Assembly (NCBI RefSeq): GCF_000018105.1
Contig: NC_009925.1
Location: 1,950,001-1,982,000, forward strand
Direction: 5' to 3'
DNA from: Acaryochloris marina MBIC11017
GTDB taxonomy: Bacteria > Cyanobacteriota > Cyanobacteriia > Thermosynechococcales > Thermosynechococcaceae
DNA: 32,000 nt
This document shows positions 3,609 through 20,539 of this stretch, one piece after another. The position numbers were made by a program, and so were the translations under genes. The stretch's first letter is position 1, and the number at the start of each line of letters is the position of its first letter. A model generated the notes under the pieces. That model worked only from the letters and a program-made list of their open reading frames with translations. It did no database searches and had not been told where the DNA came from.

Positions 3609-4772
3609 ATGGGCCGTGTCGGTGTTCTATTACTGAATCTAGGGGGACCAGAACAGCTAAAGGATGTACGTCCTTTTTTGTATAACCTGTTTGCTGACCC
3701 AGAAATTTTACGACTGCCATTTGCCTGGATGCAAAAGCCTTTTGCCGGGTTAATTTCAACCATGCGAGCCCGAACGTCTCGGGACAACTATCGGCAAATC
3801 GGAGGCGGATCCCCTCTACGACGGATCACCGAAGCCCAAGCCCACGCGCTCCAAGACGACTTACAGGCTAAGGGATGTGACGCCCAGGTCTATATCGGTA
3901 TGCGTTACTGGCACCCTTTTACAGAAGAGGCCGTCAACCGCATTAAACAGGATGGCATTGAAGAGCTGGTTATCCTGCCCTTGTATCCTCAGTTTTCTAT
4001 TAGTACGAGTGGTTCAAGTATCCGGTTATTGGAAAAGATTTGGTCTGAAGATCCAGCATTACAAAAAATCAAGTACACCGTTATCTCCTCTTGGCACGAT
4101 CGCCCTGGCTATGTTCAAGTTATGGCCGACTTTTTGCGTCAAGAGCTGGATCAATTTGAGAATCCAGACCAAACGACCGTATTTTTTAGCGCCCATGGCG
4201 TCCCTCTCAGCTATGTGACTGAATCAGGAGACCCCTATCAGCAGGAGATTGAAGCCAGTACCCAGCTGATCATGGAAGCGTTAAAACGCCCTAATCCCCA
4301 TATCTTGGCCTATCAAAGCCGAGTGGGACCGATGGAGTGGTTACGCCCCTACACCACGAATGTGATTGCCCATTTAGGTCAGCAAGGGGTTAAAGATTTA
4401 GTGGTGGTTCCCATTAGCTTTATCTCGGAACATATCGAGACGCTCCAAGAAATCGATATGGAATACCGGCATTTAGCGCTAGAGTCAGGCATTGAAAATT
4501 TTCGCCGGATGCCAGCTGTCAATACCCATCCAGACTTTATTGATACCCTCAGTGAGATGGTGCTGGAATATCTGGACAAGCCTTCCCTTAGGTTCTCTCA
4601 AGTTTTTCGCCCCCAGAAAAAGATCAAGCTGTATCCTCAAGAGCGTTGGGAATGGGGGATGACCACCACAGCAGAGCGCTGGAATGGTCGCTTTGCGATG
4701 GTCGGCTTTATTGCATTACTGGTTGAACTGATCAGCGGTTATGGTCCCCTGCATTTAGCGGGGCTACTTTAA
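3609..4772 (+). CDS. hemH: Ferrochelatase with a C-terminal CAB/Hlip-type chlorophyll-binding helix
   Basis: [15 protein letters not shown]...[11 protein letters not shown]...[13 protein letters not shown]...FSAHGVP...[15 protein letters not shown] is classic HemH. The C-terminal [22 protein letters not shown] is the CAB motif found on cyanobacterial and plastid ferrochelatase. Confidence 0.95.
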
Positions 4773-4773
4773 G

Positions 4774-6606
4774 CTATAGCTTTTTAGAAAGTTCAGCCTT
4801 CCAGAGTTTGTGCCAGTGGCTGCGGACAGCCCGGTTGGCATCGTACATCGTCGAATACCGTGCTTGGATATTAAAGTGGCACATCTGAGCGAAAATCTGA
4901 GCTGTCGCCTGGTGCAGTTCAGCCAATTCTGGATCATCCCCTGGTGCTGATAGTTGTAAGGCTTGCAAAAAGATTTTGCCCACCACGTATTGGTCCGTTT
5001 CAGGTTTAAAGGTACCGTAGCTAATTTCTGGGGCTAAAATATCGCCTTGATCCTGAAGCAGTTTTTGATATTGTGGATATTGAAGACTAAGCTTACTGAG
5101 AATACGGGGGACTACCCCATAGTCAATCAGGACTAGTTTTTTACCTTTCTCATTGGGCTGTAGAAAACAATCGGGATGCGGATGACTATGGACCAGATCG
5201 GCCTGATGCAGAATTTCAACAATCGTTAAGACTTCATCTGCAAACTTACAGGTCATGCGGGGATTTAAGGGAGCCTTGGAGGCCAATACTTTACTCAGCA
5301 GGGCCCCTTCAACATGTTCATGCACCACATACAGGACTTCACTATCCTGTAAAAAGCTGAGCACCGGAAGACATTGCACATGGGGAGCTAGCTGTTTCAA
5401 AGTCGTCATCTCAGCTAAAAACAGCTCTTGAACCGACTGCAAAACCTCTGAATTATTGGTGTCTAGTCGAAAGGTATGAACAATTCGCAGGGGAGTATCC
5501 GGTTCTTGCAGATCTTGGGCAATAACCGTTTGTCCGAAGGCATGCTTGCTAATTACTTCAACCAAGCGAAAGTGGTCATCCCAAAAAGAGGGTTGAGGAG
5601 CCGCTGTAACGGTCGATTCTAATAACTGCTGTCGGGCAGCGACTGAGGCTTCACGGGTTTTGAGATGACTTTGAATACGTGCCAGGGCAACGGGCAAATC
5701 AATGGGCTTCGTAATGTAATCATTGGCCCCTAGTTCTAGGGCTTCGACCACATTTTCGCTGGCATCTTTGGCTGTTGCCATAATCACCGGCAGCTCTTCC
5801 TGGGAATAGATCTGCCGAATACGCTTCAGGGTCTCAATCCCCCCAATGCCTGGCATCATAATATCCAGTAAGACCAGAGCAATATCAGTGGTGGCCATCA
5901 GTTCCAAGGCTGCTTCACCACTGTCTGCTAACGCCACTTCATAGCCTTTACGCTGAAGACGCCGACTCAACATATCCCGGTTCGCCTCGACATCATCCAC
6001 GACTAGTAATGTCGGTGTCGTCGGTTCAAGGGCAGACGTTGGGGGAGGAGAGGAGGGCCGGGGTGTAGCTGCAACCAGGGGAGTCGCCCCACTCACTTCT
6101 TGTTGATCTGCTGAAGCTGTTCTAGCAGTAGCGGTGACCAATTGCTCAGAACGGGGAATATCGGGGGTCGCAACGGCGTTAGGGGCTGGCGTTGCTTTTG
6201 CCACAGCTTCTAAAGGTTGTGATGGCGCTGATGGTTCTTGAGTCTTTTGCAATAGGGTTTCAATTTTTTGCAACAGCCGCTTCAGATCAACAGGTTTAGT
6301 ATCGTAATCATCACACCCTGCCGCTAGAGCCTCTTCTCGATCACCCACCATTGCATGGGCCGTAAGGGCAATAATTGGAATAGTGGCGGTCTGGTCTCCA
6401 GCTTTGAGGGTTCTCGTCGCTTCCCAGCCATTCATCACGGGTAAGCTCATATCCATAAGAATCAGATCAGGCTGTTCCGTTAGCGCCTTCGTGACGCCTT
6501 CACCGCCATCAACTGCAATCACAACATCATATCCTCGGCGCTTCAAGCGACGTCCGAGCATGTCGCGGTTAAGTTCATTATCTTCAACTAAAAGAATCTT
6601 CGGCAT
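4774..6606 (-). CDS. Response regulator with two receiver (REC) domains and a C-terminal degenerate Ser/Thr-kinase-like (pseudokinase) domain
   Basis: REC1 spans aa ~3-120 (LLVEDN..., LILMDMSLP, ALTAH, DTKP). A Pro/Ala/Ser/Thr-rich linker follows. REC2 spans aa ~200-320 (LLVVDD..., LLDIMMP, MATAK, ITKP). The C-terminal ~255 aa follow the protein-kinase subdomain order (LAEM..LKQL, LYVVHEHVEG, DYG, APE), but the catalytic loop reads HSHPHPDC instead of HRDLKPEN. Confidence 0.85.
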   Translation of the reverse strand: MPKILLVEDNELNRDMLGRRLKRRGYDVVIAVDGGEGVTKALTEQPDLILMDMSLPVMNGWEATRTLKAGDQTATIPIIALTAHAMVGDREEALAAGCDDYDTKPVDLKRLLQKIETLLQKTQEPSAPSQPLEAVAKATPAPNAVATPDIPRSEQLVTATARTASADQQEVSGATPLVAATPRPSSPPPTSALEPTTPTLLVVDDVEANRDMLSRRLQRKGYEVALADSGEAALELMATTDIALVLLDIMMPGIGGIETLKRIRQIYSQEELPVIMATAKDASENVVEALELGANDYITKPIDLPVALARIQSHLKTREASVAARQQLLESTVTAAPQPSFWDDHFRLVEVISKHAFGQTVIAQDLQEPDTPLRIVHTFRLDTNNSEVLQSVQELFLAEMTTLKQLAPHVQCLPVLSFLQDSEVLYVVHEHVEGALLSKVLASKAPLNPRMTCKFADEVLTIVEILHQADLVHSHPHPDCFLQPNEKGKKLVLIDYGVVPRILSKLSLQYPQYQKLLQDQGDILAPEISYGTFKPETDQYVVGKIFLQALQLSAPGDDPELAELHQATAQIFAQMCHFNIQARYSTMYDANRAVRSHWHKLWKAELSKKL

Positions 6607-6654
6607 GTAATGATGGCCTCTCTAATCCCTGAGGTGTGTGAATCGCTGGCTAGA

Positions 6655-7107
6655 TTAACTGGCTTGAGGCTTCACCAGAATGGCATCACCTTCTACTTTG
6701 ATGTCATAGCTTTCTAGCGGCTCAGAGGCAGGTCCTTTAGCAACAGCTCCATCCGGTGTATAGGTGGAACCATGGCAAGCACAGAAAATATCTTGAGAGT
6801 CCTGTTTCCAATCTACGGGGCAACCCTGATGGGTACATGTTGGATTAAGCGCATGAAGGGTATCAGCGTTCTTTGGATCTCTCACCACTAGAACTTTTTG
6901 GTTCCCTTTCAAGGTTTGCAGAATACGGCCATTTTTGTCTAAGTCTTGGGTCTGGCCCACCTTGATAAACCCACCTGGGGTCGCTTCAGCTTTAGGCGCT
7001 GGGGTTGAGGAGGTTGAAGTCCGGTTCGTACAGGCCCCAATCACAACAGAGACGATTCCTGAAATCCAACTTAAGGTCAACCATGACAAAACTTTTCGGC
7101 GGTTCAT
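6655..7107 (-). CDS. Small Rieske [2Fe-2S] protein (PetC3-like), probably a Tat-exported lipoprotein
   Basis: Rieske motifs CTHQGC...CACHGS lie about 17 residues apart. The N-terminus MNRRKVLSW...VVIGAC has a twin-Arg motif plus a lipobox-like Cys. At 150 aa its size matches small cyanobacterial Rieske paralogues. Confidence 0.85.
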   Translation of the reverse strand: MNRRKVLSWLTLSWISGIVSVVIGACTNRTSTSSTPAPKAEATPGGFIKVGQTQDLDKNGRILQTLKGNQKVLVVRDPKNADTLHALNPTCTHQGCPVDWKQDSQDIFCACHGSTYTPDGAVAKGPASEPLESYDIKVEGDAILVKPQAS

Positions 7108-7519
7108 ACTGAAATCTTAAGAAACGAGATCCACAATAGTTTACTAGCTGATGGGAGTTTCCCTTGAAAAATAATAGGGAATAAATACACACAGACTAGA
7201 ATTAGTTTGCCCATGCCAACGCTATAAACTGAACTTCAAAAACATTTATTTGTCGACCCAAAACAACCAATAATTGACGCTAAACTCTGTGAATCTCAGT
7301 ATAGACTTACATTTTGAGTTTATTACAAATAATTGACCTAACTCCCTTAAATTCCTATCATTGCGATATTTTTATTTACAAATATCTTGTTGAAAGAGAC
7401 CCATATTTGGGCAAACTAAGGGTTGGAGACAGAGTAGAATTATTGTTCTCGAAAGTCTTCTTTAACTCTTATGTAAAAAATGCATCAACGTTTAGAGAAA
7501 TGCTATCTCCAGGAGGGTC

Positions 7520-8545
7520 TTGGGCGTGAACAGACTGTTTAAAAAACGCCATCTAGTATTGATTGTTTTGTTCGCAGTTGCATCGCTACTGTCATTACAA
7601 CTGGCACGGATGACGGAGCAACCTGTGATTGCAAAACTAGGCCCCCCCATTACCGCAGCTGGAGATGAGCCGATTGAGCCGATTCCGATGCAGGTTTCAT
7701 TAAATATGGAGAAAGTGGTTCTGGGCAAACAATTGTTCCATGATCCTAAACTCTCTAAAACCAATGATATTTCTTGTGCCAGCTGTCATGATTTAACGAT
7801 GGGGGGGACCGATCGCCTACCGGTTTCCATTGGCATCAACGGTGAGAAAGGTTCTATCAACTCCCCCACCGTATTTAATAACAGCTTTCACTTTAAGCAA
7901 TTTTGGGATGGCCGAGCTTCAAGTCTAGAAGAGCAAATCGAAGGTCCTGTCCATGCGGGGAATGAAATGGGATCGAGTTGGCCAGAAATTATTGGCAAGC
8001 TCAAGCAGTCACCTGAATATGTGAATGCCTTTAACAAACTCTATGAGAGTGACATTTCCGCGGACCATATCAAAGATGCGATCGCAACCTTCGAGCGCTC
8101 CCTCTATACCCCCAATTCAAAATTTGACCAATTCCTCCGGGGCAATGCTGACGCTCTAACCCAAGACGAAAAAGAAGGCTATCGACGCTTCAAAGGGTAT
8201 GGCTGCGTCGCCTGCCACCAGGGCGTGCTGCTCGGTGGCAATATGTATCAGAAATTTGGGGTTTTTGGTGACTACATCAAAGACCGGGGGAATGAAACTA
8301 AAGCGGATCTGGGACGCTACAACGTCACTGGCAAAGAAGACGACCGCTACATGTTTAAGGTACCGAGCTTAAGAAATATCGCCTTAACTGCCCCCTATTT
8401 TCATGATGGCTCCTCTCAAACCCTAGATGAAGCTGTCAAAATCATGGTCAAATATCAACTCGGTCGCGAAGCAGATCAGAAAGACATTGACCTAATTATC
8501 AAATTCTTAAACACCTTAAATGGTGAAATCAAAGAGGTCGCCTAA
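7520..8545 (+). CDS. Di-haem cytochrome c peroxidase (CCP/MauG family), periplasmic
   Basis: Two CxxCH haem motifs (CASCHD, CVACHQG), the CCP signatures FKVPSLRNIALTAPYFHDGS and FWDGRASSLEEQ, and an N-terminal signal peptide. The track start is TTG at 7520. GTG at 7526 has better spacing to the AGGAGGG sequence at 7511-7517 and may be the true start. Confidence 0.9.
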   Translation: MGVNRLFKKRHLVLIVLFAVASLLSLQLARMTEQPVIAKLGPPITAAGDEPIEPIPMQVSLNMEKVVLGKQLFHDPKLSKTNDISCASCHDLTMGGTDRLPVSIGINGEKGSINSPTVFNNSFHFKQFWDGRASSLEEQIEGPVHAGNEMGSSWPEIIGKLKQSPEYVNAFNKLYESDISADHIKDAIATFERSLYTPNSKFDQFLRGNADALTQDEKEGYRRFKGYGCVACHQGVLLGGNMYQKFGVFGDYIKDRGNETKADLGRYNVTGKEDDRYMFKVPSLRNIALTAPYFHDGSSQTLDEAVKIMVKYQLGREADQKDIDLIIKFLNTLNGEIKEVA

Positions 8546-11328
8546 TGCAGAAACAAAAACTTCTTGGCCTCCTCGGGGTCTCTGGTGCCCTGCTCTTGTT
8601 TGGCGGCTTCGTTGCCAAAAGCTTATCCGTTGACAACCAGCAGCATCAACAATATCGCACCCTCATGGCTCAACAGTTGGACAAAGATGCCACTGTTAAC
8701 CAGAGCGTACTCAAGGCCAGATATGCCCTTCTAACCTCCTACGACCCCCTCGTCCGAGCCATATCCGAGCAGCTCGAGTTACAAGAGGATCTCAAGCAAG
8801 TTCCTGGGTTTATTGGTAACCAACAAAGCCTCTTATCCCAGCTCAGCGAGAACAACCAGGTCTTCACCCAGAAAGAAGAGTTAGTTGAATCGTTCAAATC
8901 CAAAAATGCCATCCTCAAAAACTCCTTAACTTACTTGCCAGAATTGGTAAAAGAAGTTCGCACGGGCTCTGCTAAAGGCTTATCAACGGATGAGGCGATT
9001 CAGTTAGAAAGTCTATTGGATAACGTCTTGCTGTACAGCTTGTCATCCGATGAAGATCTCGTTCCCCAGATCGAAGCCCAAATCACTCAGCTTGAGGGGA
9101 AAAAATCTTCTCAGGGCATTCAATTGGCCCTTGCCCATACCCGGATGATTCTGGAGTATAAGCCCCAGGTCGACACCTTAACCCGCGATATCCTGAAGCT
9201 GCCTACGGCCCAAGCCATCAGCACCTTAGAAGCGGCTTATACCAATCAATATGATGCAGCCACCCAAACCGCCGACCTATTTCGACTACTCAGCTTCGGC
9301 TGCTTGTTAGTCCTCGTCAGTGGTGGTGCCTATTTGGTGGTTCAGCAACAGCGCCGCTCCAATGAACGGGTCTCGGGTATTCTCAGCAGTTTGACCGATG
9401 CCTTCGTCGCCCTCAATCCCCAGTGGCAAATCACCTATATCAATGACAAAGCTGCTGAAATTTTACAAGCGGATTCCCAACAGCTGCTCAATCAAGATTT
9501 CTGGCAAAGCTTTCCAGACGTTCTGGGGGCCGATCATCTTAGTGACTATCGGCAAGCCCTAAAAGAGAAGCAAAAGACCTCCTTCGAGGTGTTTTATCCT
9601 CCCAGCCAAATGTGGTTGGAAATTCGGGTCTATCCCAGTGTGGACGGTCTCTCCCTATTCCTTCAGGATGTAACCATCCGCAAGGAAGCGGAAGCCAGCT
9701 TGAAACAAATGAACCAAGAGCTGGAAACTCGGGTCAAAGCTCGTACGGCCCAGCTCGCCTCCAGTATGGAAGCCGCCGAAGAAGCGCGGGAGAAAGCAGA
9801 AGAGGCCAATAAGAGTAAGAGTGAATTCTTGGCCAATATGAGCCATGAACTGCGGACCCCCCTCAACGCCATTATTGGTTACAGCGAAATGCTGGAAGAG
9901 GATGCCGAAGATATGGGGCAGGATGATTTTGTCCCCGATTTGCAGAAAATTTCAGGGTCGGCCAAGCATCTCTTAGAGCTGATTAACGCAGTGCTGGATC
10001 TGTCGAAGGTTGAAGCCGGACGGATGGAGCTTTATTTGGAGTCCTTTGAAATCGCACCGATGGTTAAAACCATTGCTGCTACATTGCAACCCATTGCTGA
10101 TAAGCAAAGCAACATGATTTCTCTACATTGTCCTGAAAACATCGGGACTCTGTATGCGGATCAAACCAAAGTCCGTCAGAGTTTGTACAACCTACTCAGT
10201 AATGCTTGTAAATTCACAGAATCCGGCGAAGTTAGCCTGACCATCTCTGAAGATGCGGGTGAAGAAGTTGTGTTTAGCATTAAAGACACCGGCATTGGCA
10301 TGACTCCAGAACAACTGGAAAAAGTGTTCAAAGCCTTTACCCAAGCGGATGCATCTACCACCCGTAAATATGGGGGAACCGGACTGGGCCTCACCATCAC
10401 CAAGCAGTTTATTGAGATGATGGGCGGTCATATTTCAGTGACCAGCCAATACGGCTACGGCACCGAGTTTACGATCCATCTTCCTCGCCAAGTGGAATCA
10501 GAATCGAAAGCATCGGCTCCCGCTCAATCTGTCCCCGCCGAACCCAGTAAAATCTCGTTACCCACAACGGCTAAGGGACAGCCGGGTGGCACAGTACTGG
10601 TGATTGACGATGACGAGTATGCCCGAGATTTAATGAAACGGTTTTTAACGGATGCTGGGTATGATGCCGTGGCGTCGTCTTCAGGGGTAGAGGGGCTACA
10701 ACTCGCTGAAGACCTGATGCCGGACATGATTATTTTGGATGTTCTGATGCCAGAACTAGACGGCTGGTCCGTCCTCCAGAATCTCAAGGGCAATGCCAAG
10801 TTAGCAGATATTCCCGTCATTATGATGACGATGGTGGATGCCGAAAAAGTCGGTTTCTCTTTGGGCGCGACTGACTTCCTGACCAAACCCTTACAGCGGG
10901 ATCGGCTGCTGGAACTGTTGGATAAATATGTCACCACCGCCGATCGCAACTGGATGTTAGTGATTGAAGATGATCTGCCTTCACAAGAAATGCTAGGTCG
11001 CCTACTAGAGCGGGAAGATTGGCCCTACAAAACAGCGGGCAATGGCAAACAAGCCCTTGAAGTCCTTGGTACCCATGGCATCCCAGACTTAATTTTTCTG
11101 GATCTAATGATGCCAGAGATGGATGGGTTTGAGTTCCTCAAGGTGCTGCGGCAAAATCCAGAATGGCAAAATATCCCTGTAATTGTGGTTTCAGCGAAAG
11201 ACCTTACGGCTAGTGAACGGATGGAGTTGGGCGATACGGTCCAAAGCATTCACCAAAAAGGCCACCTCGATCGAGAGGAATTGCTGGAAGAAGTCCAAGA
11301 CTTTATTGAGATTACAGCGGGTCATTAA
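8545..11328 (+). CDS. Hybrid sensor histidine kinase: TM, ~215-aa periplasmic helical sensor, TM, PAS, HisKA, HATPase_c, REC, REC
   Basis: TM helices lie at aa ~6-27 and ~246-266. The PAS-like region is [19 protein letters not shown]...VTIRKEAE, followed by a coiled coil. The H-box is [14 protein letters not shown], with His434 encoded at 9844-9846. N and G boxes are LLSNACKFT and DTGIGM...GGTGLGL. Two receivers follow (VLVIDDD...[10 protein letters not shown]; MLVIEDD...[11 protein letters not shown]). The start ATG overlaps the peroxidase stop (TAATG, 8543-8547). Confidence 0.9.
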
Positions 11329-11362
11329 ATCGAGACCCAGAAAATTCAACACCGCCTAATCC

Positions 11363-11408
11363 CAGCAACCAGAGCGATTGGATGCTCTGGTTGCTGTTGT
11401 TATTTTTT
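11363..11408 (+). terminator. Rho-independent terminator downstream of the hybrid kinase
   Basis: Perfect 13-bp stem, CAGCAACCAGAGC (11363-11375) and GCTCTGGTTGCTG (11384-11396), with an 8-nt loop. It is followed by TTGTTATTTTTTG and starts 35 nt after the stop codon. Confidence 0.65.
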
Positions 11409-11604
11409 GCTCGCAACTCATCACCTTAGAGATGAGGAGTATCACGGTCTATCATCATCCACCCCTATGCCTACAACCATCAATCACCTTGCCCTTATTG
11501 GTTAAAAAAGGGGTCTGGCATAGATCCAAATATGGGCAAACTGGCGTATATCTTATCAGTTGGCGTTCGCGCCACTCAGCTTCGTCCAATATTGGGAATA
11601 AGGC

Positions 11605-12102
11605 ATGAAATTCAACTGTCGGCCAGTCGGAATAGAGTTTCTGGAGAATGCCCCCGTTCAATTCGTGAATCAGGTGGAACTCGCTGCATCACCGGCCCAG
11701 GTGTTTGAGATCTTTGAGAACGCCGAGGCTTGGCCCCAATGGTACAAAGAGATTGTCAATGTGGAATGGCATGGCTCCCAACCCTATGGGGTGGGCACTA
11801 CACGCACCGTCAAACTGACTACAGTCACTGTAGAAGAATATTTCTTTGTCTGGGAGCAGAACCAGCGTTTGGCATTCTACTTTACGGGTATGAGCCTCCC
11901 TCTAGCAAAGGCTTTGGTTGAAGAATATCGCCTCATTCCTTTGGGTGAACATCGAAGTCAGTTCACCTATAAAGTTAGCTTAGAGCCTTCGTTTTGGCTC
12001 CGTTTGGGAGGTCCATTTATTCTCAAGGTCTATGCAAAGATGTTTCAGCAAGCAACAGCCGATTTGGCTGAATATATTCGGAGTCAATCAGTGATCTCTT
12101 GA
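11605..12102 (+). CDS. SRPBCC (START/polyketide-cyclase-like) family protein
   Basis: 165 aa. The pattern ...V.L.ASP.QVFEIFENAEAWPQWYKEI..VEW.G....GVGTTRTV.L... is typical of the SRPBCC ligand-binding fold. Its stop overlaps the next gene's start. Confidence 0.7.
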   Translation: MKFNCRPVGIEFLENAPVQFVNQVELAASPAQVFEIFENAEAWPQWYKEIVNVEWHGSQPYGVGTTRTVKLTTVTVEEYFFVWEQNQRLAFYFTGMSLPLAKALVEEYRLIPLGEHRSQFTYKVSLEPSFWLRLGGPFILKVYAKMFQQATADLAEYIRSQSVIS

Positions 12103-12695
12103 TGTCGGAACATATTCCCGATCGTTTTTTTGAACTAGCTCCCTTGTATGCTCTGGGGAGTTTAGCAGAGGGTGAATGCCAGTGGGTTGAAGCTCAAATG
12201 GAAGCTCACCCAGAATTAACAGCAGAAATTGCCGCGTATCAAGCTGCGATCGCAACCCTACCCTATGCCGTTCCTCAACAATCCCTGCCCGCAGGCTTAA
12301 AAGAGCGCGTTTTCCGCAAAACGACCGGAGAAGCTCCTCCAGCGACTGAGGAACCTGGTATTCCCGTCAGCAAAAACTTTAATTTTTCTGATCTGAAATG
12401 GCGACCGTTTAATGCTCCCGGTTTTGAAATGGCAAAACTGCACTTGAATCGTGACTCGCGTGAACTCACCTGTTTCGTCAGAGCAGCCACAGGCGGACTA
12501 CCCTATCCTGCTCATCGCCATGCAGGTCCTGAAGAGATCCTGATGCTAGAAGGAGAGCTGAGAATTGGGGAAACGTTATACGGTCCAGGAGACTATATTC
12601 GCGCCGAAGCTGATTCAGTCCATCCCCATGCAGAGACTGTCACCGCTTGTCTCTTCTACCTGAAAACTTCTGTCGATAATGAAACCTTGGTGTAA
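12102..12695 (+). CDS. ChrR-like anti-sigma factor / cupin-domain protein, soluble
   Basis: The N-terminal helix-rich segment (FELAPLYALGSLAEGECQWVEAQMEAHPELTAEIAAYQ) resembles an anti-sigma N-domain. The C-terminal cupin is AHRHAGPEEILMLEGEL..GE..YGPGDYIRAEADSVH. The likely start is ATG 12102, sharing one nt with the upstream TGA (TGATG). The track start is TTG 12099. Confidence 0.7.
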   Translation: MSEHIPDRFFELAPLYALGSLAEGECQWVEAQMEAHPELTAEIAAYQAAIATLPYAVPQQSLPAGLKERVFRKTTGEAPPATEEPGIPVSKNFNFSDLKWRPFNAPGFEMAKLHLNRDSRELTCFVRAATGGLPYPAHRHAGPEEILMLEGELRIGETLYGPGDYIRAEADSVHPHAETVTACLFYLKTSVDNETLV

Positions 12696-12844
12696 AAGCG
12701 GTTTCCGACAAAACCCTATCAAGATGATGGTGATGAATCACTCAAGACTTATGCAGCGGCAGTAAGTTTCAACTTGAACTGGTCAATAATTTGAATAGAG
12801 GGCCGCATTTCTCCCCAACTGCCAACACTGCAACAATTCGCACT

Positions 12845-14458
12845 ATGTTCCGCCAGTATGGTCGCCTGAAGCATTGGCTTGAACTATCACCGACAGAAGT
12901 TTTACGAGGACGGTTATCCAGAAAAATTGCGTTTTGGATCTTTGCAGGACTAGTGTTGATCGAAATCATTATTCTGCTGCCGTCCTATGCCAAAAGAGAA
13001 CAAGACCTGCTGACCGATCTAGAACAGACTGGGATGGCAACCCTCAAACCTTGGGTGAACATTCCCTGGGACCGCTTATCCGCAGACAACTCAACATTGC
13101 TACAGCAATCGCTGGTTTTTGATTCACGGTTACGGGGGGCTGTTGTGCTCTCTCCTCGGGGTCAAATCGTTGCCCAATTTGGGACAGCGCCTACTCTCCA
13201 ATCATCAGACTTAAGTCGTTCGCCTATCACTCGATCGCTACATACGAATGACCTCATCTATGACATCGCTTGGTCTCCCTCTGAATTCGGCACCACAAAA
13301 TATACTGTCATTGCCAGTCTTGATGCCTCACAGGTCAAGAGAGAGAAAATTGCTTACCTATGGCGGATTATCGGACTGATTGTCTTAATCTGTGTGACGG
13401 TAACATTGGTGACGATGTTAGCCCTCAGACCGCTGGTGCTCAAACCCATCGACCAGTTAAGACTAGACCTGCAAAAAGTGGGACTAGCCATTAATCACGA
13501 TCAGTCGCAACCTGCTCTAGCGACCCAGAGTATTCGGAGAAGTGATGAACTTGGCGAAGTCGTCGCCACTTTTCACCTGATGGTGTCCCAGATCTATGAC
13601 AATGTCCACGAGCGCAAGCAAGTGGAGCATCAGTTACAAGAACTCAATGAAGATTTAGTTAAGACGCTAACCGAACTCAAAGCCGCCCAAGCTAGCTTGG
13701 TAGAGGCCGAAAAGATGGCAGCTCTGGGCACACTTGTCGCCGGAGTAGCCCATGAAATCAATACCCCCATCGGCACCAGCATTACCGTTGCCTCTACACT
13801 AGCTGACGAAACCCATGTTTTTTTGGAAGCTGCCCAATCAGGACAGCTCAAACGTTCAGTTCTCAACCATTACATCGACGTCGCTCGCCAATCAACCCAA
13901 CTCATTAACAGCAATTTGGATCGAGCCGGTCAACTGATTCAAAGCTTCAAACAAGTTGCAGTCGACCAATCTCATCAATCGGTCAGAACGTTTAATCTTA
14001 AGACTTACCTCGACGAAATTGGCACCAGCCTGCAACCTCAAATCAAACGGTCAGGGCACCAGCTGAACATCCTTGGGGACGATGATATTGTCCTGACACA
14101 GGATCCCGGTATTTTCGCCCAAATCATAACGAATCTGGTCACTAATTCGATTAAGCATGCTTATCCATCCGATATAAATGGCACTCTCCAACTCCAGATC
14201 ACAGCAGCCAACAACCAAGTCATCCTGGATTATTGTGATGATGGTTGTGGGATTTCACAGGATCTGCTCAACAAAATTTTCGATCCCTTTTTTACGACCG
14301 CCCGCCATATCGGGGGAACTGGGCTAGGTCTGCATATTGTTTACAACATTGTTGTGCAATCGTTGAACGGAACCATTGATGTCCAGAGTCAGGAACACAA
14401 AGGCAGTCAATTTAAAATTACGTTTCCCTTAACTCCCTCCCCTCCAGTAGAAACATAA
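12845..14458 (+). CDS. Membrane sensor histidine kinase: TM, extracytoplasmic domain, TM, HAMP-like region, kinase core
   Basis: The two TM helices are IAFWIFAGLVLIEIIILLP and IIGLIVLICVTVTLVTMLAL. A HAMP-like linker is followed by the H-box MAALGTLVAGVAHEINTPIG, the N-box ITNLVTNSIKHA and the G-boxes DDGCGI / GGTGLGLHIV. I prefer ATG 12845 (MFRQYGRL...) over the track's TTG 12791. Confidence 0.85.
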   Translation: MFRQYGRLKHWLELSPTEVLRGRLSRKIAFWIFAGLVLIEIIILLPSYAKREQDLLTDLEQTGMATLKPWVNIPWDRLSADNSTLLQQSLVFDSRLRGAVVLSPRGQIVAQFGTAPTLQSSDLSRSPITRSLHTNDLIYDIAWSPSEFGTTKYTVIASLDASQVKREKIAYLWRIIGLIVLICVTVTLVTMLALRPLVLKPIDQLRLDLQKVGLAINHDQSQPALATQSIRRSDELGEVVATFHLMVSQIYDNVHERKQVEHQLQELNEDLVKTLTELKAAQASLVEAEKMAALGTLVAGVAHEINTPIGTSITVASTLADETHVFLEAAQSGQLKRSVLNHYIDVARQSTQLINSNLDRAGQLIQSFKQVAVDQSHQSVRTFNLKTYLDEIGTSLQPQIKRSGHQLNILGDDDIVLTQDPGIFAQIITNLVTNSIKHAYPSDINGTLQLQITAANNQVILDYCDDGCGISQDLLNKIFDPFFTTARHIGGTGLGLHIVYNIVVQSLNGTIDVQSQEHKGSQFKITFPLTPSPPVET

Positions 14459-14611
14459 GCGGGCAAAACCTTTAGGAATCAAGGCTCACCATTCCTGATG
14501 CTCAACGCCTAACCCTTGTCGAACATTCAGTGCCTGATAGTGAAGTGGCTTACGGCAGACTTTAATCATGTGACAAACTATCACAGCGAATTTAGCGCCA
14601 GAAGCACTGTA

Positions 14612-15253
14612 TTACCAATACTGCCAAGCTGAATTCGTCAAAATATAGATTCCCAACGCCAAATTAGTGGTGCTATGGGCAATCATGCAGGCGTAGAGGC
14701 TCTTCGTCACCTTCAGCAGAATGGTATAAATCACCGCACAGATAATAGCCACCAGCCACTCGCTATGGAGCAGTCCAAACAACACACAAGAGATGGCAAA
14801 GGCTCCCCAGGTAAAGGTGCCTATAGGGATTTTCTGAAACTCGGGTACGCTCAAGTACCGAAGGAGGAAAGAACGCCAAAAGATCTCCTCCATAATCGGC
14901 ACCATCACCACTAAGCCATAGAAGCGAAAGGCCAAAAAGACGGGTAAGATCCAGCCCGTCAAACTGACGAAGGGATTGTAGCCAACACGCTGGCCTAGAG
15001 GGGGATAAGGGATCCATTGATCCAGCAAAATCCATTCGGCAAAGACGATGAGACCGACTGCGATCGCAGTCACGGTTACCTTGCCACCGGGTCGAACATC
15101 TTGCCACGGACGCGCCAAAACGCCTAGCAGTGTAGACACAACAATCACCTTTACCCCATAGAGCCAAGGATAGGCCTCTGGCCATAGCCCTTCCAGGGTG
15201 GTAATCAGCATAAACGTAGCCATCGGGGCTACATAGGCAACCCAAGGCGGCAT
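14612..15253 (-). CDS. CPBP-family intramembrane glutamic endopeptidase (CAAX protease / Abi-like)
   Basis: Polytopic membrane protein with the CPBP motifs EEIFWRSFL, FGLLH and HSTTN. Confidence 0.85.
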   Translation of the reverse strand: MPPWVAYVAPMATFMLITTLEGLWPEAYPWLYGVKVIVVSTLLGVLARPWQDVRPGGKVTVTAIAVGLIVFAEWILLDQWIPYPPLGQRVGYNPFVSLTGWILPVFLAFRFYGLVVMVPIMEEIFWRSFLLRYLSVPEFQKIPIGTFTWGAFAISCVLFGLLHSEWLVAIICAVIYTILLKVTKSLYACMIAHSTTNLALGIYILTNSAWQYW

Positions 15254-18010: not shown

Positions 18011-20539
18011 ATGTCTTGGGAAGAAGCAGAGCAACGGATTCAAGGGGCTGCGAAGCAACAATCTAGAAGCCTTGATTTATCATATTTAGGACTAACAGAA
18101 ATTCCCGATGCGATCTCACAACTAAAAAACCTGCAAACGCTTTCCCTACAAGGGAATCAACTGACCACGATTCCCGATGCGATCTCACAACTAAAAAACC
18201 TGCAAACGCTTTCCCTACAAAGGAATCAACTGACCGCGATTCCCGATGCGATCTCACAACTAAAAAACCTGCAAACGCTTTCCCTACAAGGGAATCAACT
18301 GACCGCGATTCCCGATGCGATCGGACAACTGGTAAACCTGCAAACGCTTGACCTGCACGACAATCAACTGACGACGATTCCCGATACGATCTCACAACTG
18401 GTAAACCTGCAAGAGCTTGACCTACGCAATGATCAACTGACCACGATTCCCGATGCGATCTCACAACTGTCAAATCTTCAAAAACTTTATTTGCATGGGA
18501 ATGAATTGCTGAAAATTCCGGCTGAGATTCTAGGTTCAACATACGGCGATGTTCGATCTGGAGCAGAACCAGCTAAACCAAAAGACATTCTGGAATACCT
18601 TTTCCGCATCCAGAAACAAGCCCAACCTCTTAATGAAGCGAAATTGATTCTGGTGGGCTATGGTGCGGTTGGTAAAACCTCTCTGGTCAACCGATTGGTT
18701 CATCAAAGGTTTGATGCGAGTGAAACTAAAACTGAAGGCATTCAAATCACCGATTGGCCCCTGTATTTGAACGGCAATGAAGACGTCAAATTAAATGTTT
18801 GGGATTTTGGGGGGCAAGAAATTATGCACTCCACCCATCAGTTTTTTCTAACTGAACGAAGTTTGTATCTTCTTGTCCTCAACGGTCGCCAAGGCCATGA
18901 AGATGCAGATGCTGAGTACTGGCTCGAACTGATTCAAAGTTTTGGTGGCGACTCTCCCGTTATTGTTGTCCTCAACAAAGTTGAAGAACATCCTTTCGAT
19001 GTCAACCGCAGTGGCCTCAAGCAAAAATTCCCTAATATTAAAGGCTTTGTGCGTACGGACTGTGAAACTGAACGAGGTCTGGATGAACTCCGCCAAGTCA
19101 TTGAGCACGAAACAGATCGTCTCGAACATTTGCGCGATCCGTTTCCAGCTAGTTGGTTTGCCATTAAACAGCGTTTAGGAGACATGGAGGAAAATTACAT
19201 CTCCTTTGAGCACTATCGGAATATCTGCAACCAGAATCAAGAATCCGATCTAGACTCTCAAGATTCCCTAGCTGTTCATCTTCACAATTTAGGCATTGCT
19301 CTCAACTATAAAGATGATCCTCGTCTGAGAGATACCAATATCCTCAATCCTCTTTGGGTCACCAATGGCATCTACAAAATCCTCAACGCTCATGATTTGG
19401 CAGACCACAAAGGAGAACTAGATCTTGGCTGCCTTCCCCAACTGTTGGATCCTAAAAACTATCCTCGTCAGCGCCACGGTTTCTTAATGGAGCTAATGCG
19501 CAAGTTCGAGCTATGTTTCCCTTTTCAGGACAGTCAAGAGCGCTATCTCATTCCCGACCTACTTGATAAACAACAACCACTAGAAGCCGAAGACTTTATT
19601 CTCGAAGACTGCCTTAATTTTCGCTATACATACCCCATCTTGCCCGAAGGCTTGTTACCTCGCTTTATAGTTCGTACCCATGTCTTGAGTAGCAATACTC
19701 TTCGCTGGCGCACTGGTGTTATCCTCGATTTTGAAGGTAGCCGTGCTCTAGTAAAAGCTGACCGTCAAGACCGAAGTGTCAGTATCAGCATCACTGGCCC
19801 TAAAAATAAACGCCGTGAATTGTTGGGCATCATCCGTTATGACTTTGAGCACATCCACAACAATTTTAAATTTCAGCCTGAAGAAAAGATTCCGATTCCA
19901 AATCACCCAAAACTAACCTTCAGCTACAAAGATTTATTGGTGATGGAAGAACAAGGCTTAGTTAAGGTACCAAAAGTCATCAATGGGAAATTAATCCATC
20001 TAGAAATCAAGGAATTACTCAACGGTGTAGATCTAACAAAGCGACCGCAAACTTTAAGAGACGTTGAGCATCCATCAAAAGCTCTCCAACTCTTCTACAG
20101 CTACTCCCATAAGGATGAAGGTATTCGTGATCAGCTCGAAACACATCTCAAGGTGCTTCAGCGCAGGGGTCTTATTCAAAATTGGCACGACCGCAAGATT
20201 CTGCCTGGTACTGATTGGAAAAACGAATTAGACAGAAATCTTGAACAGGCCGACATTATCCTGCCATTAGTCAGTCCAGATTTTATCGCTTCTGACTATT
20301 GCTATGAAGTCGAAATGAGCCGTGCCAGAGACCGCCATGATGCCAAAGAAGCAATTCTACTCCCTATCCTAATCCGCCCTGTAGATTGGAACTCAACTTC
20401 CTTCTGTGATATTCAAGCCTTACCCAGTGATCTAAAACCAGTAACAAAATGGTCTGATAAAGATGATGCTTGGCTAAATGTCATGCAAGGTCTAAAGCGA
20501 GTTATTCAAGTGATTCAAAAAAATAAATCTCTTCAATAA
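18011..20539 (+). CDS. LRR-Roc-COR-TIR multidomain protein: a ROCO-type GTPase with a C-terminal TIR domain
   Basis: aa ~20-175 hold about 6.5 leucine-rich repeats of 23 aa (IPDAISQLKNLQTLSLQGNQLTT). aa ~208-370 form a Ras-like Roc GTPase: G1 GYGAVGKT (K222), G3 WDFGGQE, G4 LNKVE. aa ~375-625 are COR-like (FPASWFAIKQRL..., LIPDLL, LPEGLLPRFIVR). aa ~692-835 form the TIR domain (LFYSYSHKDE..., WHDRKILPGTDW, ADIILPLVSPDFIASDYCYEVEMSRA). Confidence 0.9.
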   Translation: MSWEEAEQRIQGAAKQQSRSLDLSYLGLTEIPDAISQLKNLQTLSLQGNQLTTIPDAISQLKNLQTLSLQRNQLTAIPDAISQLKNLQTLSLQGNQLTAIPDAIGQLVNLQTLDLHDNQLTTIPDTISQLVNLQELDLRNDQLTTIPDAISQLSNLQKLYLHGNELLKIPAEILGSTYGDVRSGAEPAKPKDILEYLFRIQKQAQPLNEAKLILVGYGAVGKTSLVNRLVHQRFDASETKTEGIQITDWPLYLNGNEDVKLNVWDFGGQEIMHSTHQFFLTERSLYLLVLNGRQGHEDADAEYWLELIQSFGGDSPVIVVLNKVEEHPFDVNRSGLKQKFPNIKGFVRTDCETERGLDELRQVIEHETDRLEHLRDPFPASWFAIKQRLGDMEENYISFEHYRNICNQNQESDLDSQDSLAVHLHNLGIALNYKDDPRLRDTNILNPLWVTNGIYKILNAHDLADHKGELDLGCLPQLLDPKNYPRQRHGFLMELMRKFELCFPFQDSQERYLIPDLLDKQQPLEAEDFILEDCLNFRYTYPILPEGLLPRFIVRTHVLSSNTLRWRTGVILDFEGSRALVKADRQDRSVSISITGPKNKRRELLGIIRYDFEHIHNNFKFQPEEKIPIPNHPKLTFSYKDLLVMEEQGLVKVPKVINGKLIHLEIKELLNGVDLTKRPQTLRDVEHPSKALQLFYSYSHKDEGIRDQLETHLKVLQRRGLIQNWHDRKILPGTDWKNELDRNLEQADIILPLVSPDFIASDYCYEVEMSRARDRHDAKEAILLPILIRPVDWNSTSFCDIQALPSDLKPVTKWSDKDDAWLNVMQGLKRVIQVIQKNKSLQ
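18101..18514 (+). repeat. Six tandem 69-bp units encoding the LRRs; the first three are near-identical at DNA level
   Basis: Units are phased at 18101, 18170, 18239, 18308, 18377 and 18446. Units 1-3 differ from each other by only 1-2 nt out of 69 by my direct comparison. Units 4-6 diverge progressively. Confidence 0.9.

Follow-up and report, generated by a model that had tools for sequence, protein, structure and literature searches.

What business does a secreted peroxidase have directly upstream of a sensor kinase? The question is raised by four genes in the genome of Acaryochloris marina MBIC11017, where a periplasmic di-haem cytochrome c peroxidase (CCP) and a hybrid sensor histidine kinase are encoded divergently from a small Rieske protein and a response regulator. 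The sequence analysed was a 32-kb window (the whole stretch, positions 1,950,001 to 1,982,000 of contig NC_009925.1), and coordinates below are positions within it unless another locus is named. An earlier note, made from the letters of this DNA alone, had read the four genes as one dedicated redox-sensing phosphorelay with a pseudokinase as its output. That interpretation is partly supported here and is best reframed around two of the genes: the peroxidase and a receptor with a double all-helical (DAHL) sensor domain appear to form an input module, a variant of accessory-protein-coupled two-component sensing. I put the probability that the cluster is a periplasmic peroxide or redox signalling unit built around this conserved two-protein module at roughly 0.5.

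Results

Domains were called with Pfam, and NCBIfam was used for closer family placement. When an alignment of the DAHL domain was scanned against one genome per GTDB species, 80 loci of one DAHL subfamily were recovered from Cyanobacteria, Acidobacteriota, Verrucomicrobiota, Alpha-, Beta- and Gammaproteobacteria, Myxococcota, Geobacteraceae and Poribacteria, many of them from metagenome-assembled genomes (MAGs) whose taxonomic labels may be wrong. A CCP gene lies directly 5' of the DAHL receptor, on the same strand, in 69 of the 72 loci whose upstream sequence extends for 1.1 kb or more. Among the 60 pairs that could be scored, the stop of the CCP gene and the start of the receptor gene overlap by 4 nt in 39 and by 1 nt in nine (48 together), and an overlap of either size is a signature of translational coupling. 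The window holds such a pair, of the type seen in DocA-DocB of Campylobacter jejuni: the CCP gene is immediately 5' of the receptor gene, on the same strand, and the two overlap at position 8545.

What follows the DAHL domain varies. Across 55 receptors, HATPase_c was found downstream of it in 37 and a receiver in 23; GGDEF (8), adenylate/guanylate cyclase (5), MCP signalling (4), EAL (3), Hpt (3) and SpoIIE (PP2C) domains (1) were found as well. Receptors with a CCP gene upstream include a DAHL-MCP protein (L018), two DAHL-cyclases (L026, L061), three DAHL-GGDEF proteins (L047, L052, L070) and a DAHL-PP2C protein (L031). The adjacent regulator varies too, being of OmpR type in Rhizobiales, a 320-aa double-receiver protein in Burkholderiales, a REC-PAS protein in Xenococcaceae and a REC-REC-kinase protein in the clade of the window. 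Judged from these comparisons, the core of the system is a two-gene input module of CCP and DAHL receptor, and it is neither cyanobacterial nor a four-gene unit. The earlier note had suggested asking whether the four-gene arrangement is conserved across cyanobacteria; it does recur in one subclade, but the part that is conserved most widely is the gene pair, which crosses phyla. Because the CCP stays with the sensor domain while transmitters and regulators are swapped, it is probably best read as part of the sensor, and not just as a detoxifying enzyme.

A precedent comes from C. jejuni, where docA (Cj0020c), encoding a CCP, is "located immediately upstream of docB" (Cj0019c, Tlp10); docA is needed for chick colonisation, and the CCPs of this species add nothing to its resistance to H2O2 (PMC3156733). 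The overlap and translational coupling of docA and docB have been described, with the suggestion that the proteins interact "perhaps to signal peroxide availability" (PMC13462783), and Tlp10 is the founding DAHL receptor according to work cited in PMC9796306. The Acaryochloris pair resembles DocA-DocB in that the CCP gene is immediately 5' of, overlaps and is coupled to the gene for a DAHL receptor. It differs in that DocB is a chemoreceptor, whereas here the receptor is a hybrid histidine kinase with two receivers, joined by a Rieske protein and a REC-REC-pseudokinase protein. In the literature on DAHL kinases, CCP co-sensors and Acaryochloris CCP, only docA and docB were found, with no test of the idea and no description of its generality. 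Thus, the earlier note's failure to recognise the cluster as a described pathway needs qualifying: docA-docB is an adjacent and coupled precedent, but the cluster as such was not found described.

The CCP of the window is a periplasmic di-haem bacterial CCP (bCCP) of 339 aa with a Sec-type signal (7526-8545, + strand; CCP_MauG, 198 bits). Its gene and its stop at 8545 had been called correctly at the outset, with the start at 7520; that codon, a TTG, is an alternative, but GTG 7526 is more likely the start because GGAGGG lies 10 nt upstream of it and the gene call for the public chromosome record that the window matches, AP026075.1 of assembly GCA_024347835.1, is of 339 aa. A PDB sequence search found it to be about 50% identical to the solved bCCPs 9QDT, 1IQC and 3O5C (E 1e-82 to 1e-90); 1IQC is annotated only as "di-heme peroxidase", and I take it to be the Nitrosomonas europaea enzyme. 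Matches to MauG (1e-21) and to the di-haem enzyme 6E1C (1e-33) were weaker, and the NCBIfam scores fell short of the cut-offs for both MbnH (174 against 363 bits) and MauG (159 against 444). By these measures the protein belongs to the true bacterial CCP branch, not to MauG/MbnH. It has haem c sites at C84xxC87H88 and C227xxC230H231 and, when aligned to 1IQC, the calcium-site Asn (N112), the inter-haem Trp (W127) and the Met ligand of the high-potential haem (M307). The catalytic residues Q137 and E147 of the peroxidatic haem are kept, which makes it a catalytically complete type. The distal His of bCCPs, which sits on a flexible loop and is a ligand of the peroxidatic haem when the enzyme is at rest, is missing, its position being Ile104 (a SIGI in place of a SIGH loop), and the closest solved relative, 9QDT, likewise lacks it.

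The same residues were compared across 62 DAHL-coupled CCPs. All 62 keep both CxxCH motifs, the calcium-site Asn, the Trp and the Met ligand, whereas the catalytic Glu is kept in only 31 and the distal His in none. In Xenococcaceae, Rhizobiales, Noviherbaspirillum and Burkholderiales the Glu is replaced by Val, Leu or Ala, and the FWDGRA motif is lost as well. Since the haem sites, Asn, Trp and Met are invariant and the Glu is not, this pattern indicates that haem binding is under selection everywhere in the coupled CCPs and that catalysis is not.

The receptor is a hybrid sensor histidine kinase of 927 aa (8545-11328, + strand), in which a first transmembrane helix, the periplasmic DAHL domain and a second transmembrane helix are followed by PAS, HisKA (H434) and HATPase_c domains and two receivers (D732 and D853). 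Its H box (H434) and its N, G1 and G2 ATP-binding boxes (N549, D581xGxG and G610) are intact, and both receivers keep the phospho-acceptor Asp, as expected of a hybrid kinase. The DAHL domain occupies aa 29-247 (8629-9285, + strand; PF19443, 196 bits over the full profile), about 220 residues between the two helices. Eight of its residues (Y66, D67, E115, F117, K118, S119, N121 and H198) are invariant in 69 CCP-coupled relatives, and no invariant Trp was found in the domain among the CCP-coupled relatives aligned. An AlphaFold2 model of the domain is all-helical (pLDDT 86); searched against the PDB, it gave weak fold matches only, to the HBM domain of McpS (E 6e-3) and to the sensor of TorS (E 0.2, TM about 0.4), which are a lead and not a sign of membership.

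The Rieske and REC-REC-kinase genes are, on the loci sampled, clade-specific additions to the module, confined to a cyanobacterial subclade. Their order is divergent from the gene pair in five Acaryochloris genomes (L001, L006-L009), colinear (CCP, hybrid kinase, Rieske, REC-REC-kinase) in L010 from Leptolyngbyaceae and in L014, a cyanobacterial MAG, and convergent in L086. L012 has CCP, hybrid kinase and regulator without the Rieske gene; L013 is a decayed colinear copy whose regulator lacks the kinase domain; and L031, from Planktothrix, has the order Rieske-CCP-DAHL-PP2C without a REC-REC protein. Orthologues of the REC-REC-kinase adjoin CCP-DAHL kinases in L006-L010, L012, L014 and L086, and every member of the subclade of two-receiver hybrid kinases (L001, L006-L010, L012-L014) has the REC-REC partner beside it. 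Some CCP-DAHL loci of other cyanobacteria have neither gene. Finding these components side by side in no fewer than three arrangements (divergent, colinear and convergent) argues for a functional link among the four genes, so the original proposal that they belong together has held up, and in L031 it is the periplasmic CCP, rather than the cytoplasmic regulator, to which the gene order ties the Rieske protein.

Three of these outlying loci have features of their own. In L013, from a cyanobacterial MAG, the reading frame of the hybrid kinase (8174-12318) carries on without a break to take in the C-terminal third of a Rieske protein (through CPCHGSTFKADG), which is either part of the decay of a colinear copy or an artefact of assembly. 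In L086, a gene for a cytochrome b561-type membrane protein (Ni_hydr_CYTB; 14139-14726, - strand) lies directly 5' of the CCP gene and may point to a route by which electrons pass from quinol to the periplasm and on to the CCP. L087 is an unrelated cyanobacterial locus (5277-9683, + strand) in which the gene for a hybrid kinase with a Tll0287-like domain is followed after a gap of 3 nt by a REC-REC-Pkinase gene with a high-scoring kinase domain. Tll0287 is a c-haem protein. Sensor kinases are thus paired with REC-REC-kinase regulators in a second cyanobacterial setting, and such regulators seem to be a usual partner of haem-based sensor kinases.

The Rieske protein of the window (6655-7107, - strand; Pfam Rieske) is a PetC3-like small [2Fe-2S] lipoprotein of 150 aa with a Tat signal. 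It has the twin arginines at residues 3-4, a lipobox Cys26, the cluster ligands C91/H93 and C109/H112, and the extra cysteines Cys96 and Cys111; the CTHQGC and CACHGS boxes, the twin arginines, Cys26 and the extra cysteines are invariant in 12 relatives. The nearest solved structure is 5CXM, PetC3 (Sll1182) of Synechocystis (about 100 residues aligned, E 3e-18), and the protein misses the NCBIfam PetC cut-offs (79 against 154 bits). Being short, with Tat arginines, a lipobox Cys and the CxH..CxxH ligands, it is by sequence PetC3-like rather than a subunit of the b6f complex. PetC3 is likewise short and is fixed at the periplasmic side by an anchor of the lipoprotein type; its Em is +135 mV, and what it does "has not yet been revealed" (PMC10172866). 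The residue after CxCHG is Ser in the window protein and Ala in PetC3, so their potentials may differ. No report linking a PetC3 gene with a CCP or a sensor was found in the literature.

The response regulator (4774-6606, - strand; 610 aa) has two receivers (Response_reg x2, 186 bits) and a C-terminal domain with a weak match to Pkinase (40 bits, cut-off 31.7). Receiver 1 (aa 3-117, 6256-6600, - strand; D52, T82, K104) is nearest to hybrid-kinase receivers in NCBIfam, and receiver 2 (aa 200-311, 5674-6009, - strand; D248, T278, K300) is PhoB/PleD-like. With D52 and D248 here and D732 and D853 in the kinase, the phospho-acceptor Asp is kept in all four receivers of the cluster. The kinase-like domain (about aa 341-610, 4777-5586, - strand) was aligned to its orthologues and to active CDPK1 kinases. 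It has SKHAFG in place of the Gly-rich loop, LRIVH without the Lys at beta3, and a catalytic loop HSHPHPDC for HRDLKPEN, in which Asp has become His475, Lys His477 and Asn Cys480. It retains the APE motif and the DFG Asp495 (as DYG), and this Asp is the sole catalytic residue kept of those found in an active Hanks-type kinase. By its residues the domain is a pseudokinase in this genome, as had been proposed. The more distant orthologues in L010 and L012, however, keep the Lys, the HxD Asp, the Asn and the DFG Asp, so the dead state looks like a trait derived within Acaryochloris, and a pseudokinase output is not a property of the pathway.

A phmmer search with the pseudokinase domain found 1169 kinase relatives at E<=1e-10. 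At E 1e-30 the domain is rare, being reached by 12 cluster representatives of 1.84 billion, and word-indexed searches were sparse (3 matches, with 8 for the DAHL domain). Its nearest relatives outside Acaryochloris (23-30% identity) are proteins with several kinase domains together with TPR, GUN4 or WD40 domains. A specific origin from the second domain of tandem-kinase proteins was considered and rejected, as the best matches fall on either domain. An AlphaFold2 model built from 4 sequences had a pLDDT of 42 and was left unused. On its 3' side the regulator gene meets hemH (ferrochelatase, 3609-4772, + strand), which converges on it with one base between the two stops; this adjacency is retained in all Acaryochloris loci, and plain synteny or a link to haem supply could explain it.

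Much of the layout first described for the cluster stands. The ORF listing of the window gives four reading frames at 4774-6606 (-), 6655-7107 (-), 7520-8545 (+) and 8545-11328 (+), with the Pfam architectures REC-REC-Pkinase, Rieske, CCP_MauG and DAHL-PAS-HisKA-HATPase_c-REC-REC. The coordinates of the two divergent operons are confirmed, as is the A/T-rich spacer between them (7108-7519), which is 412 nt long, or 418 nt once the peroxidase start is moved to GTG 7526, and has a GC content of 0.337 against 0.481 for the whole window. Also correct were the 48 nt from the Rieske stop to the regulator start, the Tat signal and lipobox, which can be read directly as the twin arginines and Cys26, and the overlap of the CCP stop with the kinase start: TAA (8543-8545) shares one base with the kinase ATG (8545) in TAATG (8543-8547), and AGAGG lies 8 nt 5' of this ATG. 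It had further been said that the cluster encodes neither an HPt domain nor a DNA-binding output, and indeed Pfam found neither Hpt (PF01627) nor a DNA-binding domain in the four proteins or in the called genes up to 10 kb on either side. On the same grounds the label "phosphorelay" goes further than the sequence does, since a multistep His-Asp-His-Asp relay calls for an Hpt domain or protein, which might still be encoded at an unlinked site in the genome.

The intergenic region as a whole (7108-7525) may hold control elements for both operons, since blocks of it are conserved in five Acaryochloris genomes. The 12-mer TGGGCAAACTAA occurs at 7202-7213 on the - strand, 95-106 nt 5' of the Rieske ATG, and at 7408-7419 on the + strand, 107-118 nt 5' of GTG 7526. 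These are its two exact copies in the window, where 0.25 would be expected even with one mismatch allowed, and their inversion gives each the same orientation relative to its own operon. The 11-nt core GGGCAAACTAA is found on the CCP side, 5' of the CCP gene, in all five Acaryochloris loci, and on the Rieske side it is exact in three and degenerate in two. The shared 12-mer is consistent with co-regulation of the two operons, for which it is a candidate element. An 18-nt block, CTTATGTAAAAAATGCAT (7468-7485), about 40 nt 5' of the CCP start, is near-invariant in the five genomes while its flanks diverge, and may be a promoter -10 region or a 5'-UTR element. A 14-mer direct repeat in the spacer, ACAGASTAGAATTA, was dropped because it is not conserved in the other Acaryochloris genomes. 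Scans with promoter and terminator consensus sequences gave no more sites than in shuffled sequence, the one convincing element being a hairpin like an intrinsic terminator (14 bp stem and T run; 11363-11396, + strand) at the end of the rightward operon, and Rfam had no matches between 4500 and 11700.

Two further features of the window lie beyond the cluster. Just past the terminator, an SRPBCC/polyketide-cyclase-like gene (11605-12102, + strand) overlaps by 4 nt a ChrR-type Cupin_7 gene (12099-12695), which is followed by a histidine kinase gene (12791-14458). In other bacteria, ChrR-like proteins act as anti-sigma factors in the response to singlet oxygen, and the pair may be a second oxidative-stress module; in L006 both genes are present and no longer adjacent. 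Further on, 18011-20539 (+ strand) encodes an 842-aa protein with LRR, Roc, COR-A, COR-B and TIR domains, a ROCO-type GTPase fused to TIR and possibly an NLR-like or anti-phage defence protein.

Discussion

How might such a unit work? Domain content, residue states, gene coupling and co-conservation are direct observations, and a mechanism can be proposed that fits them. Translational coupling, as the gene structure suggests, would make the secreted CCP and the membrane kinase in fixed proportion. The CCP would act as an accessory sensor: the DAHL domain, probably touching it directly, would detect whether the haem of the CCP is oxidised, half-reduced or peroxide-reacted. The Rieske lipoprotein, exported by Tat and anchored at the periplasmic face, would most likely be the electron donor of the CCP, in which case the unit would signal the flux of peroxide as measured against the supply of electrons. 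Inside the cell, H434 of the kinase would phosphorylate receivers, with the REC-REC-pseudokinase protein as dedicated partner, either directly (its own receivers serving as sinks or modulators) or through an unlinked Hpt protein. Phosphorylation could shift the oligomeric state of the REC-REC partner, in the manner of PleD, and hence binding by the pseudokinase. The output would be regulation by protein-protein interaction, plausibly within Ser/Thr-phosphorylation networks and not at transcription; the PP2C output in Planktothrix and the intact kinase domains of L010 and L012 suggest such networks.

Several points weigh against this account. The functional steps, namely the contact between CCP and DAHL, the stimulus, the donor role of the Rieske protein, the route of phosphotransfer and the pseudokinase output, are all ones that I infer. 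Sampling covered the DAHL subfamily marked by L[VIL]ExFKS[KQD]N[AS] and not DAHL proteins at large. With every catalytic residue in place, the CCP of the window could be an enzyme and nothing more. Direct binding of small molecules is reported for the DAHL domain of C. jejuni Tlp10, in work cited in PMC9796306, so such a domain can do without a protein partner. The TorS sensor is a weak fold match, PetC3-like Rieske genes at a greater distance (39% and 33% identity) have no CCP or DAHL genes close by, and, as the kinase has two receivers of its own and no Hpt was found nearby, transfer to the REC-REC protein is conjectural.

The most serious competitor to a periplasmic signalling unit is an enzymatic one. 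The CCP and its Rieske donor could form a detoxification or respiratory module that is merely co-expressed with, or regulated by, a two-component system whose DAHL domain senses a small-molecule ligand alone, the CCP having no share in perceiving the signal. The complete catalytic set of the window CCP, with its close similarity to active bCCPs, fits this well, as does the reported binding of several small ligands by the Tlp10 domain in the work cited in PMC9796306, and the OmpR-type regulator beside the pair in Rhizobiales could autoregulate the operon. A regulated target, however, should travel with its regulator, whereas the CCP travels with the sensor domain while transmitters and regulators change, and the stop-start overlap is kept across phyla. 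Furthermore, half of the coupled CCPs lack the catalytic Glu, the CCPs of C. jejuni give no protection from H2O2 (PMC3156733), and the Acaryochloris cluster encodes no DNA-binding output. On balance I regard detoxification under two-component control as unlikely, though it deserves to be kept in mind.

A second alternative concerns only the grouping of the four genes: the leftward operon (Rieske and REC-REC-pseudokinase) and the rightward one (CCP and kinase) might be functionally unrelated neighbours. They are separate transcription units, and some other cyanobacterial CCP-DAHL loci lack both extra genes; moreover, the close Acaryochloris relatives keep hemH as a neighbour too, so little can be concluded from local synteny by itself. 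Against this, distant cyanobacteria have the components side by side in other orders (colinear in L010 and L014, convergent in L086, Rieske-CCP in L031), the whole two-receiver hybrid-kinase subclade has the REC-REC partner adjacent, and the 12-mer TGGGCAAACTAA is common to the 5' regions of both operons. Chance neighbourhood is therefore very improbable.

Least probable of all is a MauG/MbnH-type modifying enzyme that oxidatively matures a DAHL or Rieske residue into a sensing site, for although the protein is of the CCP_MauG superfamily with sub-threshold matches to both families, the genes for MauG and MbnH adjoin those of the proteins they modify, and DAHL Tyr66 and His198 are invariant, the CCP matches true peroxidases (1e-85 to 1e-90) far better than it does MauG or 6E1C, its Met ligand M307 is invariant where MauG has a Tyr, and the DAHL domain has no invariant Trp.

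A CCP that serves as the input of a signalling unit would have parallels. In TorT-TorS and LuxP-LuxQ, the ligand is sensed primarily by a periplasmic protein whose gene adjoins that of the hybrid kinase and which docks on the periplasmic domain of the kinase; the sensor of TorS is an all-helical stacked bundle, and TorS carries an Hpt domain. The CCP would by analogy be such a partner, encoded beside its hybrid kinase, but TorT and LuxP are solute-binding proteins, whereas it is a redox enzyme with two c-haems; the window kinase, unlike TorS, lacks Hpt, and the fold match is the weak one given above. H-NOX/HnoK and NosP/NahK offer a second comparison: these cytoplasmic b-haem sensors of NO are encoded beside kinases, diguanylate cyclases or chemoreceptors and control them on ligand binding. 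Here too one haem-protein input serves many outputs, but the input is a periplasmic di-c-haem peroxidase with a transmembrane receptor. The regulator resembles PleD-type proteins in having tandem receivers before its output (the receiver pair is most similar to PleD in both NCBIfam and the PDB), and differs from PleD in having a degenerate Hanks-type kinase domain where PleD has GGDEF, and in keeping the acceptor Asp in both receivers.

A much wider generalization is tempting, and I offer it tentatively, as something I would sooner doubt than believe. CCPs docked on DAHL domains could be a general periplasmic receptor for H2O2 or redox state in bacteria, from Cyanobacteria to Proteobacteria, driving kinases, c-di-GMP and cAMP cyclases, chemoreceptors and PP2C phosphatases. 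In lineages that have lost the catalytic Glu the CCP would be a pure sensor, and in Acaryochloris and its relatives the receptor would be fed by a PetC3-type Rieske protein, placing this orphan family in a functional context for the first time, and would signal through a phosphorylatable pseudokinase into Ser/Thr-kinase networks. More speculative still is the thought that the invariant His198 or Tyr66 of the DAHL domain gates an open peroxidatic haem that lacks a distal His of its own.

Conclusions

The known bacterial sensors of peroxide (OxyR, PerR and OhrR) are cytoplasmic, and perception of peroxide or redox state in the periplasm, ahead of its arrival in the cytoplasm, is poorly understood. 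The CCP-DAHL module is a concrete candidate for such perception in many phyla, tied to chemotaxis, second messengers and phosphorylation. If the proposal is true, the module explains how DocA can contribute to colonisation without protecting C. jejuni from H2O2. For cyanobacteria, the cluster is a first genomic clue to what PetC3-type Rieske proteins do, and in Acaryochloris a response regulator with a pseudokinase output would bridge two-component and Ser/Thr-kinase signalling directly.

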